Origin: a virus
Virus record (IMG/VR): IMGVR_UViG_3300020477_001012
Span: 64,001 to 128,000 of that record
DNA length: 64,000 nucleotides
Strand: one strand, 5' to 3'
A program made the position numbers and the translations under genes. The stretch's first letter is position 1, and each line of letters begins with the position of its first letter. The notes under the pieces are model-generated. The model was not told the DNA's origin. It did not search any database and saw only the letters and a program-made list of their open reading frames with translations. Below are positions 28,638 to 50,665 of the stretch, one piece after another.

Positions 28638-28955
28638 ATGAACATCTGTAATTTTACCGGCTTCTTGTTAGAAGACCCCGAGCTATCTATTAGTAGTAAT
28701 GTGAGCCATCTTGTTTTTAAGCTGGTCACCTATACATATAGAAGAAGCAAAAATACCGGAGAGAAGCAAAGAATGCCCACTGTCTTAACTTTTGAGGCGT
28801 GGCACACAGGGGCCGAAACTATTGCCAAGCTGGCTCAAAAGGGCACCAAAATGACCGTGTCTGCTTCTGCCAAGAATGGAAAAGGGGAAGCCGACATACT
28901 CTTCAGGGTGAATGAATTTGATTTTGGGTGCCTTAACCAAGAGCAGGAATTATGA
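28638..28955 (+). CDS. Single-stranded DNA-binding protein-like OB fold
   Basis: MN...TG.L..DPEL...FEAW...AE.IAK..QKG..MTV; short, no DDDIPF-type tail. Confidence 0.7.
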   Translation: MNICNFTGFLLEDPELSISSNVSHLVFKLVTYTYRRSKNTGEKQRMPTVLTFEAWHTGAETIAKLAQKGTKMTVSASAKNGKGEADILFRVNEFDFGCLNQEQEL

Positions 28956-30640
28956 GAAAAAAACGTATATTGTTTTGCAGTGAGGCTACGTTCTTAAATA
29001 CTGGTTACGCTACATATACCAGAGAAACACTGAACTATCTTAACAGCACAGGGAAGTATGAACTTGCTGAGATGGGTTCTTATGGAGAGCGTAACGACCC
29101 AAGGGCAGCGAATATACCTTGGAAGTACTACGGTGTGGTTCCCAATCAGTCAAGCGAACCCAAGGCATCTAAAGAAGAGATGGATGCATACGGAGCGTCG
29201 GGCAGCAATCAATTTGGAGAGTGGATATTTGAACACGTTTGCTTGGATTTCTTTCCAGATATCGTTTGCGACATCCGTGATTTCTGGATGCTAGAATTTG
29301 CTGAGCGGTCTCCATTTAGGAAATACTTTAAGTGGGCGTTGATGCCCACGGTGGACGCACGACCCCAAGCGAGGCAATGGGTGGCGACATATCAATCAGC
29401 CGATGCGTGCTTTACTTATTCCGACTGGGCTGGCGGAATATTAATGGATCAATCTGGCGGGCAAATCAACTACTTGGGCAGTTCGCCGCCGTCAGCCCAC
29501 CCTGCTTATAAGCCAGTAGAAGACAAAAGAGGCCACAAAGAACAGTTTGGGATAGACCCAGACTGCAAGATTATCGGCACGGTTATGCGCAACCAAAGAC
29601 GTAAGCTTTACCCAGATTTGTTTGAGGCGTTCAGAATATTTCTCAACAAGTCAAAAGACAAAAATTTCTATTTGTATTGTCACACGTCGTATCCAGATTT
29701 GGGCTGGGACTTACCAGAACTACTGCAAGAGCATGAGCTTTCGTCACACGTTCTGTTTACGTATATATGCCCAGAAACAAAAAAACCGTTCCCCTCGCTA
29801 TTCAAGGGGGCTATTGCCCAGTCTCCATTCACCGGAAAGTGGGGGGCAACCCTGTCCAACGTGAAGAATGGGGCATCTTATGAAGATCTTTCTGATATTC
29901 AAAACTTATTTGATCTGTATACACAATATGCGAACTGTGAGGGGTTTGGGCTTCCCTATGTTGAAGCTGCCGCATGCGGAGTTCCCGTGTGTGGAACTGA
30001 TTACTCTGCCATGGAGAGTGAAATTCGCAAGCTAGAAGGGCACCCAATAAAACCCAAGGCTTTATACAAAGAATTGGAAACGGGATGTTTGCGGGCTGTG
30101 CCGGATAATGAAGGGGCCGCATCTTACTTTTTGGATTTCTTTAATGCTAGCGATGAATATAGAGAGAAAGCTGGCAAAAGGACTAGAGAGTTGTTTGAGA
30201 AGCACTTTCAATGGCACCTGAGTGGCAAGAAATGGGAGGACTACTTTGATAGCGTGGAAGTGCCCCCGGTAGAGCAAACTTGGGCATCACCGCCAAGCAT
30301 TCACCAGCCAGAGGCAAAGCCAGAAAATATTCCACCAAATGTAAACCATAGTGAGCTTGCCAAGTGGCTGATATTGCATGTTCTTGGAGACCCCTCTCGT
30401 ATTGGTACCTTTTTTGAAGCTAGGCTTACTAGGGATCTGATGTATCAGTCTTCCACGTCTTCCACTGGGGGTATGTACTTCAATGAGTCTTCAGCCGCAT
30501 TTGATGGATTAAATGTAAGGGCAAACTTCTCTTTTGATGATGCATACAACAACCTGCACGCTCAGTGCGAAAAGAACAATGCTTGGGAAAGAAAAAGGAT
30601 CGAAACTATAAAACAAAGGATGTCTACCGAGCAATCATGA
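28952..30640 (+). CDS. GT-B (GT4-like) glycosyltransferase with C-terminal extension
   Basis: TGYA, MRNQRRK, EGFGLPYVEAAACGVP..TDYSAM. Confidence 0.9.
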   Translation: MRKKRILFCSEATFLNTGYATYTRETLNYLNSTGKYELAEMGSYGERNDPRAANIPWKYYGVVPNQSSEPKASKEEMDAYGASGSNQFGEWIFEHVCLDFFPDIVCDIRDFWMLEFAERSPFRKYFKWALMPTVDARPQARQWVATYQSADACFTYSDWAGGILMDQSGGQINYLGSSPPSAHPAYKPVEDKRGHKEQFGIDPDCKIIGTVMRNQRRKLYPDLFEAFRIFLNKSKDKNFYLYCHTSYPDLGWDLPELLQEHELSSHVLFTYICPETKKPFPSLFKGAIAQSPFTGKWGATLSNVKNGASYEDLSDIQNLFDLYTQYANCEGFGLPYVEAAACGVPVCGTDYSAMESEIRKLEGHPIKPKALYKELETGCLRAVPDNEGAASYFLDFFNASDEYREKAGKRTRELFEKHFQWHLSGKKWEDYFDSVEVPPVEQTWASPPSIHQPEAKPENIPPNVNHSELAKWLILHVLGDPSRIGTFFEARLTRDLMYQSSTSSTGGMYFNESSAAFDGLNVRANFSFDDAYNNLHAQCEKNNAWERKRIETIKQRMSTEQS

Positions 30641-31251
30641 ATGAACCAATAGATGTATGGAAATCCGAATTCCTGTTAGCCCACAGCATATTGTTTTCGG
30701 GTGTTAAAAACAGAATAGACACCGTGGAAGTTCAATCAGAAGACGGCGAGGGTACCCGAACTGTCAACACCAGAGACCACATATTTAGCCAAGTGCTCAA
30801 AGAGTTTTATCCTGAACCCATTAGAGTGTTTCAAGTAGGAGCTATAGAAACTTTCAAATCCGAGTGGAGAATAGGGTCTGGGTGGAGCGATCTGATTTTC
30901 GGGGCGTATATCAATGCTCATGGAGGTCGGCTAACACTTGTAGACATAAATCTGGACCATTTAGCAAATTCAACGCTGGCATCCCATGCGTTGCAATACC
31001 CAGTGGAGATTATGCTTGGGGATGCCATCGACGCAATTGGCCAAGGCGAATACGACATTTACTATTTAGATGGGGGTAATGACCCACAAGAAACACTAGA
31101 CCAGTTCAATAAAATTAAGGACAAGAAGTGTGTAGTTTTGGTTGATGACTTCTCTATAAAAGGAACGCTACTCAGTGAAACAGACTATGACTTTACGGTC
31201 CACGACGCCGTTAATGGTTTTGGCGTACTAGACTTAAGGAATCAGGAATGA
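30637..31251 (+). CDS. Class I SAM-dependent methyltransferase-like
   Basis: ATGA start at 30637; VFQVG, LTLVDIN, DIYYLDG, VLVDD. Confidence 0.65.
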   Translation: MNEPIDVWKSEFLLAHSILFSGVKNRIDTVEVQSEDGEGTRTVNTRDHIFSQVLKEFYPEPIRVFQVGAIETFKSEWRIGSGWSDLIFGAYINAHGGRLTLVDINLDHLANSTLASHALQYPVEIMLGDAIDAIGQGEYDIYYLDGGNDPQETLDQFNKIKDKKCVVLVDDFSIKGTLLSETDYDFTVHDAVNGFGVLDLRNQE

Positions 31252-50208: not shown

Positions 50209-50221
50209 AAGGAGAGGAATA

Positions 50222-50665
50222 ATGAATATAGGTTTTTATATTAACTCAACAAACGTAAACCCGCCAAATGATGCAATTTTCAAAGCTTTAAATGAAGCGG
50301 TATCCAACAAGGAAGTTACAGACGCCAGCGTGTTCTATAACGATATAGATTTTAATCCAACAGAAACAAAGTTTGGCATGTTTAACTCTACTGAGTTGTG
50401 GGCATTCACCGGAGTGCTCGTTGCCACTAGTGTGGCCAATGTGGTTCGCTCCCTGAAAATTGTCAACAAGCTTCGCCCTGTTTATCTATACCATCAAGGC
50501 GATGAGGGTAGTAAGGATCTAATGGGGTTGCTACACATAACTAACCAAGTTAAAATTATTACCAGAAGCGAACAGGACAATAAAGAAGTCTACAGACTCA
50601 CTGGTGAAAAGGCCACGGTTATTCCTGATCTGAATATTTCCAAGATTTTTGAGGCATCACAATGA
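50222..50665 (+). CDS. Hypothetical protein (possible isolated GT-B N-domain remnant)
   Basis: AGGAG RBS; MNIGFY start, GVLVAT, YL pattern; weak. Confidence 0.6.
   Translation: MNIGFYINSTNVNPPNDAIFKALNEAVSNKEVTDASVFYNDIDFNPTETKFGMFNSTELWAFTGVLVATSVANVVRSLKIVNKLRPVYLYHQGDEGSKDLMGLLHITNQVKIITRSEQDNKEVYRLTGEKATVIPDLNISKIFEASQ

Follow-up and report, generated by a model that had tools for sequence, protein, structure and literature searches.

The stretch of DNA analysed here (the window) comprises 64,000 nucleotides, bases 64001–128000 of the 173,842-bp viral record IMGVR_UViG_3300020477_001012 from IMG/VR; coordinates are window positions unless the genome is named. At 28952–50665 it carries a sugar gene cluster that consists of two layers, a core found throughout the phage lineage and a strain-variable cassette. 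Its predicted products are soluble, and the gene content supports assembly of a glycan in the cytoplasm without phage-encoded export or initiation, across both the genome and the lineage. The reading that we tentatively place first is an export-free two-layer line, in which the glycan would be built on an acceptor of the phage, most likely its virion proteins.

The source record is rated complete by CheckV. It has no near-DNA match among the 50,697 GenBank phage records of INPHARED, its large terminase (TerL) is at most 26% identical to that of any INPHARED phage, and most of its virion proteins have no match in PHROGs; therefore the phage is, judging by these comparisons, a member of an uncultured lineage. 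Nor is its backbone T4-like, given this TerL and a replicase of the split DnaE type. Protein searches of INPHARED with the N-terminal half of DnaE (DnaE-N), TerL, UDP-galactopyranose mutase (Glf) and GT562, the first glycosyltransferase of the cluster, yielded no close cultured relative, the sole tblastn match of GT562 being Tetrasphaera phage TJE1 at 23% identity. On the other hand, 197 IMG/VR stretches encode a GT562 relative at 67–98% identity, and the lineage has been sampled from both marine and freshwater sites.

Two layers of the cluster and their genes

Open reading frames (ORFs) were assigned using Pfam, NCBIfam, profile searches against PDB, AlphaFold models of two proteins (GT562 and p292) compared by Foldseek, and look-ups in the ESM structure atlas. 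Every window protein was also compared by tblastn with 80 related loci, and all locus counts below refer to this set. The first-pass annotation had described a locus of about 22 kb with about 25 glycan genes. The interval indeed contains 25 ORFs, all on the plus strand and many with 4-bp start/stop overlaps, and 21 of them can be assigned (Table 1): eight glycosyltransferases (GTs), three or four methyltransferases and ten nucleotide-sugar enzymes. The proposed bounds need two changes: sugar genes are also present upstream of the polymerase, so that DnaE is flanked by them on both sides, and the last ORF (50222–50665) has no shown sugar function or tie to the glycan system.

The order of the core is DnaE-N, exonuclease, DnaE-C, a single-stranded DNA-binding (SSB) protein, GT562, GT4a, GT4b, p138, p248 and p292, and these genes are present in the same order in 54–80 of the 80 loci. 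The DnaE split itself (two genes, 24251–28581, with the proofreading exonuclease at 25876–26550 and a small ORF between them) is kept in 75–79 of the loci; the C-terminal half of one distant relative contains an intein. In relatives with less than 50% identity the order DnaE-x-GT562-GT4-GT4 is still retained, and the cassette genes are different ones (GT25, sulfotransferase, GT2).

The cassette occupies 36154–50208, about 14 kb, and is absent or different in the relatives. In the minimal relatives (L071, L080, L062 and L072) homologs of 50222, 50662, 51427 and 52206 come directly after p292, with the virion block next; hence the interval 36154–50208 is the variable part. Gene content varies in one more slot, between GT562 and GT4a. 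The right end is conserved: in two near-complete relatives, with clusters of about 14.5 and 18 kb, the same Fcl-like gene (67% identity in both, G001 and G002) stands at the end of the cluster, directly before the flank genes. The second DegT-family gene (45808) has a homolog in G002 at 61% identity, and homologs of the GlmS-like gene, which contains the SIS and GATase_6 domains of Pfam, were found in none of the 80 loci.

The GTs (28952, 31248, 32374, 35288, 37011, 38444, 40211 and 44391) comprise three GT4 enzymes, a compact CgeB-like GT-B, a virus-specific GT-A, a GT2, a GT-D-like enzyme and, at 38444, a weak GT-A. Methyltransferases are encoded at 37794 and 45291; the match of 30565 is below the cut-off, and 33366 is methyltransferase-like at best. 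The nucleotide-sugar set includes four short-chain dehydrogenases/reductases (SDRs) at 36154, 39310 (RmlB-like), 42244 and 47736 (Fcl-like), the DegT aminotransferases at 41101 and 45808, FdtA (46763), an ATP-grasp enzyme (43273), the GlmS-like enzyme (48646) and a LicC/IspD-like nucleotidyltransferase (34542). This is the combination of glycosyltransferases with dedicated nucleotide-sugar synthesis (eight GTs, ten donor-pathway enzymes) that is typical of surface polysaccharide loci. No NTP_transferase match, which would mark an RmlA-type nucleotidyltransferase, was found in the genome.

Several of these assignments rely on profiles or structures. The SSB-like protein has a real OB fold (profile A7 against SsbA/SsbB, E 2.7e-5). 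The p248 protein is the sole sugar- or phospho-alcohol-activating enzyme of the core; its profile A2 retrieves LicC (1jyk, E 8e-6), IspD (2.6e-5) and also GlmU from PDB, and a homologue search yielded members of this phage family only. Its relatives are labelled as CTP:phosphocholine cytidylyltransferase-like, a few of them with PF12804. A phosphocholine core formed by p248 and p138 was considered and dropped, as profile A4 of p138 matches phosphoethanolamine N-methyltransferase at E 0.024 only and the genome has no LicD-type transferase. For p292, profile and sequence searches against PDB returned nothing, and the fold is assigned from the predicted structure: the model (pLDDT 92.9) leads to GT-B enzymes in Foldseek (E 2e-7) and to Glyco_trans_1_2/CgeB clusters of the atlas with TM of 0.72–0.73. 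The GT-A at 37011 likewise has no match in PDB by sequence or profile; its SDD motif is invariant in alignment A5, and the atlas clusters that resemble it (TM 0.86–0.97), from both Uroviricota and Nucleocytoviricota, are called glycosyltransferase. The SDR at 36154 scores under all equivalog cut-offs of NCBIfam.

Absence of export genes and the GT562 family

Transmembrane (TM)-like segments were scored by a Kyte-Doolittle scan. None was found in any ORF of 28952–50665. In the whole genome no ORF has more than three such segments and there is no multi-pass protein, and of the 1933 plus-strand ORFs in the 80 related loci none has three or more. Since the scan recovered the small proteins of the phage with two or three segments, it is sensitive enough for Wzx or Wzy with their 10–12 spans. 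The initiating transferase Bac_transf (PF02397) was not found in the genome, the positive control being matched in 10 reference genomes, and neither was an ABC_tran ATPase, again with positive controls in reference genomes. Thus what marks a Wzx/Wzy or ABC-exporter locus, an initiating transferase, a polytopic protein or an ABC ATPase, is not found in the genome. The earlier observation that no cluster gene has multi-TM, export or initiator character therefore extends to the genome and to the lineage, and assembly in the cytoplasm, proposed on the same ground, is supported by the gene content.

The best characterised core enzyme is GT562. Its AlphaFold model (pTM 0.83) predicts a GT4 GT-B core with a C-terminal helical extension at about 440–562. 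The best Foldseek match is 3oy2, a glycosyltransferase of chlorovirus NY2A (E 9e-17, identity just 15%), further structural neighbours being MshA, sucrose-phosphate synthase, BshA, PimB and WaaG. The EX7E motif (E330...E338) is invariant in 24 relatives, hence the catalytic motif appears to be intact. GT562 is conserved above DnaE, with a median identity of 73% against 65%.

The family is large: the GT562 profile matches 745 clusters (50% identity) at E<=1e-30 among 1.84 billion representatives, all of them metagenomic. Inteins (Hint plus LAGLIDADG) are present in 51 of the 150 best family representatives, proteins of 650–1330 aa. Three or four insertion sites are used, one preceding Cys106, others near 113–115 and 130–136, and one at Cys329, just ahead of the first Glu of the catalytic motif. 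Some family proteins contain two inteins; the copy in the window has none. The invariant EX7E motif, the conservation above DnaE and the inteins in a third of the family argue that GT562 matters to the phage. Elsewhere in the genome (2767–5127, minus strand; L082:2770–5127) a 786-aa protein has weak Hint matches near residues 215–356 and may be another intein or Hint-containing protein.

Candidate acceptors of the glycan

In the scheme that we prefer, the pathway would be fed by UDP-, dTDP- and GDP-hexoses of the host, because the phage has no RmlA-type nucleotidyltransferase. The core GTs would lay an invariant inner oligosaccharide, and p248 would contribute one CDP- or CMP-activated component, in a genome that has no LicD-type transferase. 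The cassette would supply 6-deoxyhexoses via the RmlB-like and Fcl-like enzymes, a 3-amino-3,6-dideoxyhexose via FdtA and DegT, and amino sugars via the GlmS-like enzyme, galactofuranose being supplied by the upstream Glf. The outer, strain-specific residues would be added by the GT-A, GT2 and GT-D enzymes of the cassette and O-methylated by the FkbM and TylF-like methyltransferases. Assembly is predicted to be stepwise, in the cytoplasm and on an acceptor provided by the phage, because the enzymes are soluble and no phage-encoded initiator, flippase, polymerase, ligase or ABC exporter was found; virion proteins are the likeliest acceptor, possibly at Ser-Gly sites. Such a target would fit a pathway that has no export genes and combines a conserved core with a diversifying outer layer; mycobacteriophages and giant viruses offer precedents.

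The virion block is located on the minus strand at genome 116829–173773 (window 52829–64000 and beyond). Ser-Gly is its top over-represented dipeptide, with 313 occurrences or 2.0 times the expectation, compared with 1.23 for Gly-Ser; outside the virion block the Ser-Gly ratio falls to 1.13, and the control set of 24 T4 virion proteins gives 1.11. When homologs from two related genomes are aligned, both residues of Ser-Gly are retained together at 55% of the aligned sites, compared with 30% for Gly-Ser and 28% expected from single-residue conservation; by this measure Ser-Gly is second among 184 dipeptides. Proteins of 4148, 625, 396, 323 and 247 aa show the signal most strongly. The 323-aa protein has 10 Ser-Gly sites, of which G001 retains all and G002 nine. 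In the 4148-aa protein the spacing has no periodicity, so that a simple repeat is ruled out there. The enrichment and the conservation lend modest support to virion proteins as the target, which the first-pass annotation had named as most plausible; the support is indirect, and the acceptor is still deduced from the genes.

A number of points weigh against this target. The Ser-Gly comparison draws on a single control phage, T4, and on two relatives whose genomes do not count as independent; the flanks of the dipeptide are weakly hydrophobic and its spacing is irregular, and it is possible that Ser-Gly is a structural turn motif. No convincing Ser/Thr-rich C-terminal tails were seen on virion proteins, including those of the capsid and tube, whose genes are candidates of low confidence because most virion proteins have no PHROG match. 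The cluster is transcribed with the replication genes, on the strand opposite to the virion genes. GT4 enzymes commonly use lipid-linked acceptors without having TM segments, so host machinery could be used. Finally, the sugars are identified at the family level, because every NCBIfam match is under its equivalog cut-off, and the acceptor is proposed from gene content.

The strongest competitor, which we consider less likely, is remodelling of the host envelope. Soluble GTs would modify undecaprenyl-linked intermediates of the host O-antigen, capsule or S-layer, and the host initiator and exporter would deliver the altered glycan to the surface, for instance to block superinfection or the adsorption of progeny to debris. 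Exporter-free sets of GTs and nucleoside diphosphate (NDP)-sugar epimerases in P-SSM2, S-SCSM1, S-SCSM2R and the pelagimyophages are read in this way (PMC12801897, PMC7029224). The cassette differs among relatives as a serotype locus would, and Glf, FdtA/DegT and RmlB-like enzymes are of a kind typically encoded in bacterial surface-glycan loci; moreover, among the structural neighbours of the GT4 enzymes are WaaG and PimA/B, whose acceptors are lipid-linked. However, a four-GT core that is conserved at 50–73% identity in marine and freshwater phages would need one invariant host acceptor, and the inteins and the conservation above DnaE suggest an essential rather than an accessory phage function. 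The genome also has no Gtr-type or other membrane component, and the Ser-Gly signal of the virion proteins would be left unexplained.

It is improbable that the acceptor is some other cytoplasmic molecule, that is, a soluble glycoconjugate, a polymethylated oligosaccharide, or a host protein glycosylated in the course of takeover. The absence of export genes in the genome is consistent with it, and some structural neighbours of GT562 and p292 act on soluble small molecules or on acceptors in the cytoplasm (MshA, BshA, sucrose-phosphate synthase, methylmannose-polysaccharide mannosyltransferase). However, the GT4 fold likeness is generic and says nothing about the acceptor, an outer cassette that varies from strain to strain would be ill-suited to a product of metabolism or to one host protein as the target, and no phage precedent was found in the literature searched.

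Slightly less probable still is DNA hypermodification, the alternative offered by the first-pass annotation on the ground that the first GT-B directly follows dnaE and ssb. The three GT-B enzymes behind DnaE and SSB would glycosylate a hydroxylated base, and the cassette would extend the sugar, shielding the DNA from host nucleases. The order DnaE-SSB-GT562 is fixed lineage-wide, and inteins favour replication-type genes. Phage GT-B enzymes that glycosylate DNA are established, including poly-arabinosylation (PMC13326640; bioRxiv 10.1101/2023.12.21.572611), and as in such systems (T4 alpha/beta-GT on 5-hydroxymethylcytosine, 5hmC; arabinosyl-5-hydroxycytosine, 5hoC, of RB69 and DLP3; methyltransferase plus TET plus GT) GT-B genes here lie near genes of replication and nucleotide metabolism, including a T4 gp1-type deoxynucleoside monophosphate (dNMP) kinase at 15964–16746, a point of weak support at most.

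The known routes to a glycosylatable base require a thymidylate-synthase homolog, for 5hmC, 5-hydroxymethyluracil (5hmU) or 5hoC, or else a C5-methylase with a TET-type dioxygenase (PMC13326640; bioRxiv 10.1101/2023.12.21.572611). Thymidylate synthase (PF00303) was found neither here nor in five relatives, of which two have genomes of at least 98% completeness, and an ordinary ThyX is present. In the genome C5-methylase (PF00145) was not found, with a valid control, and neither was TGT; Tet_JBP (PF12851) also gave no match in the genome, its control being equally silent. Most GTs are acidic, with isoelectric points (pI) of 4.9–6.8, the exception being the GT-D-like enzyme at 44391 (pI 8.9); GT562 has a pI of 5.6 and its C-terminal extension, at 5.8, is not basic either. 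Eight to ten GTs with amino-sugar and O-methyl chemistry go far beyond any known DNA glycan, and the cluster is much larger and chemically more diverse than the systems in PMC13326640. Adjacency to the polymerase is unspecific: as sugar genes flank DnaE on both sides, the argument from the position next to dnaE and ssb loses force. Together with the base-hydroxylation genes that were not found, this lowers the DNA reading. Least probable of all is a variant in which the DnaE-SSB-GT562-GT4-GT4 module glycosylates replicating DNA or a replisome component, an acceptor that would need no thymidylate-synthase-, TET- or TGT-type enzyme; if true, it would mean new base chemistry, extended by the cassette into strain-specific oligosaccharides.

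Table 1. Features of the sugar gene cluster, with the sugar genes upstream of DnaE and the adjoining context gene (window positions)
Position	Strand	Product	Evidence and remarks
28952..30640	+	GT562, core GT4-fold glycosyltransferase	Pfam Glycos_transf_1; 80/80 loci at 67–98% identity
30565..31251	+	Methyltransf_24-like ORF (weak), variable slot 1	Pfam 23 bits, below cut-off; 3/80 loci
31248..32381	+	GT4a, core GT4 glycosyltransferase	Pfam Glycos_transf_1, 46 bits; 73/80 loci
32374..33369	+	GT4b, core GT4 / Glyco_trans_1_2 glycosyltransferase	Pfam 66 bits; 68/80 loci
33366..33782	+	p138, core 138-aa protein, methyltransferase-like at best	62/80 loci
33785..34555	+	Semi-conserved 256-aa protein	31/80 loci at ~28% identity; no Pfam or PDB match
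34542..35288	+	p248, core LicC/IspD-like nucleotidyltransferase	Profile A2; 56/80 loci
35288..36166	+	p292, core compact GT-B, CgeB / Glyco_trans_1_2-like	AlphaFold and Foldseek; 54/80 loci
36154..37050	+	NDP-sugar SDR (GalE/LegB/RmlB-like), first cassette gene	Pfam Epimerase, 198 bits
37011..37781	+	Virus-specific GT-A (GT2-like) glycosyltransferase	Start likely near 37047; SDD motif
37794..38447	+	FkbM-family methyltransferase	Pfam Methyltransf_21, 73 bits
38444..39313	+	Possible GT-A, Nucleotid_trans-like, weak	Pfam E 0.0046, below cut-off
39310..40203	+	NDP-glucose 4,6-dehydratase, RmlB-like	NCBIfam TIGR01181, 316 bits vs cut-off 365
40211..41104	+	GT2 glycosyltransferase	Pfam Glycos_transf_2, 31 bits
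41101..42228	+	DegT/DesI/PseC-type sugar aminotransferase	Pfam 231 bits; NCBIfam
42244..43263	+	NDP-sugar epimerase/reductase, GalE-like SDR	Pfam Epimerase, 152 bits
43273..44424	+	ATP-grasp ligase, possible amidation/acylation step	Pfam ATPgrasp_Ter, 56 bits
44391..45260	+	GT-D-fold-like glycosyltransferase	Pfam GT-D-like, 37 bits
45291..45860	+	Sugar O-methyltransferase, Methyltransf_24; TylF/CmcI-like	Pfam 53 bits
45808..46803	+	Second DegT-family aminotransferase, divergent N-terminus	Pfam 104 bits
46763..47155	+	FdtA-type NDP-4-keto-6-deoxyhexose 3,4-ketoisomerase	Pfam FdtA, 111 bits
47169..47732	+	187-aa protein	No Pfam, NCBIfam or PDB match
47736..48644	+	Fcl-like NDP-4-keto-6-deoxyhexose 3,5-epimerase/4-reductase	NCBIfam GDP-L-fucose synthase, 300 bits vs cut-off 500
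48646..50208	+	Short GlmS-like glutamine--fructose-6-phosphate aminotransferase	NCBIfam 345 bits vs cut-off 381
50222..50665	+	Conserved flank gene, 147 aa	Directly after core in minimal relatives; no PDB match
28638..28955	+	SSB-like OB-fold protein	Overlaps GT562 start; context gene; 74/80 loci
19997..20500	+	Cytidylyltransferase-like, 167 aa, outlying sugar/polyol-phosphate activating enzyme	Pfam CTP_transf_like, 50 bits
22262..23107	+	Possible glycosyltransferase, weak DUF4422 match	Pfam E 0.0011, below cut-off
23097..24200	+	UDP-galactopyranose mutase (Glf), supplies UDP-galactofuranose	Pfam GLF, 254 bits

Related systems, neighbouring genes and host

Chlorovirus (PBCV-1), with its capsid glycans, and Mimivirus, with its fibril sugars, have their own genes for GFAT/GlmS-like enzymes, 4,6-dehydratase, epimerase/reductase, aminotransferase and methyltransferase, together with soluble GTs. 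The cluster resembles them in that donor synthesis (GlmS-like, RmlB-like, Fcl-like, DegT) is encoded along with soluble GTs; besides, the nearest structure to GT562 is the chlorovirus protein 3oy2, whose function is unknown, and the family of the GT-A at 37011 is common to Nucleocytoviricota. Unlike these viruses of eukaryotes, the phage has a bacterial host, and the identity to 3oy2 is as low as 15%.

Mycobacteriophages are an established case of virions glycosylated by soluble GTs and methyltransferases of the phage (Freeman 2023, PMC10527164, as presented in PMC12619734). According to papers that cite this work, Che8, Corndog and Myrna use soluble GTs with an O-methyltransferase and no export genes, as would be the case here, and place the glycan on their own capsid and tail proteins in the cytoplasm. 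The cassettes described there have 2–4 genes, host donors and C-terminal Ser/Thr-rich tails as targets, whereas the present cluster, of about 25 genes, encodes donor synthesis itself, and the candidate capsid and tube proteins lack such tails.

The cyanomyoviruses P-SSM2, S-SCSM1 and S-SCSM2R and the pelagimyophages, in the latter as a host-recognition cluster, contain islands described as 'LPS / cell-wall' (LPS, lipopolysaccharide), with no proven target (PMC12801897, PMC7029224). As here, these are large aquatic phages with variable GTs, NDP-sugar epimerases and a cytidylyltransferase, S-SCSM2R having 13 GTs. However, they are T4-like, with dispersed or fibre-linked islands, whereas here the replicase is of the DnaE type and the core is fixed behind the polymerase and followed by one contiguous cassette. 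The suggestion of a complex undescribed system thus holds as far as the lineage is concerned, as it has no cultured relative, but export-free islands of aquatic phages are known from these two papers.

Upstream of the polymerase, the Glf protein is 54% identical to glf of Streptococcus suis phages. The DUF4422-like gene at 22262 co-occurs with 21258 and Glf in three relatives (L014, L035 and L053). Further upstream (54–6806) three metabolic genes are situated between the genes of the large (54–2054) and small (5736–6806) subunits of ribonucleotide reductase: an aldehyde dehydrogenase (2078–3634), a fragment of UDP-glucose/GDP-mannose dehydrogenase (Ugd) that has no C-terminal domain (3795–4640), and a saccharopine-dehydrogenase-like gene (4651–5739). 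An IMPDH/GMP-reductase-like gene (13879–14946) is located amid the replication genes, and the dNMP kinase domain mentioned above is preceded by an unexplained N-terminal extension of 150 aa. Downstream, between the cluster and the virion block, three lineage-conserved genes (50662–52541) encode a 254-aa protein with a weak match to the endonuclease-like DUF559, a 259-aa protein and a 111-aa protein. The genome also encodes ThyX (49874–50428), four tRNAs and a permuted tmRNA with the tag AKPSFALAA.

Two genes encode proteins of the DUF1501 family (sulfatase superfamily), one in the window at 18759–20000, with relatives in 34 of the 80 loci, and the other at genome 23356–24639 (L083:3359–4639, minus strand). 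Since the latter protein is 59–69% identical to proteins of Pirellulaceae, Planctomycetaceae and Schlesneria, a host from the Planctomycetota is likely on this sequence similarity. To our knowledge, very few phages of Planctomycetota are known.

Large export-free sugar islands of aquatic phages and self-glycosylation of viruses are thus already known. New are the arrangement of core and cassette at a fixed place after the split DnaE genes, a GT562 family of such size and intein content, the enrichment and conservation of Ser-Gly, and the likely Planctomycetota host. The intein-rich GT562 family is a rare example of inteins outside genes of replication, repair and packaging. Export-free sugar islands are common in large aquatic phages, and the glycosylation target has been established for none of them. 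The lineage described here is abundant (197 IMG/VR loci, 745 clusters) and forms a cleaner system than most, with a minimal core of about six genes that lends itself to separate expression, a serotype-like cassette and a candidate acceptor motif in Ser-Gly. Should the glycan be placed on virions, diversifying glycan coats would be widespread on environmental phage particles, with a bearing on adsorption, grazing, particle stickiness and host defence.

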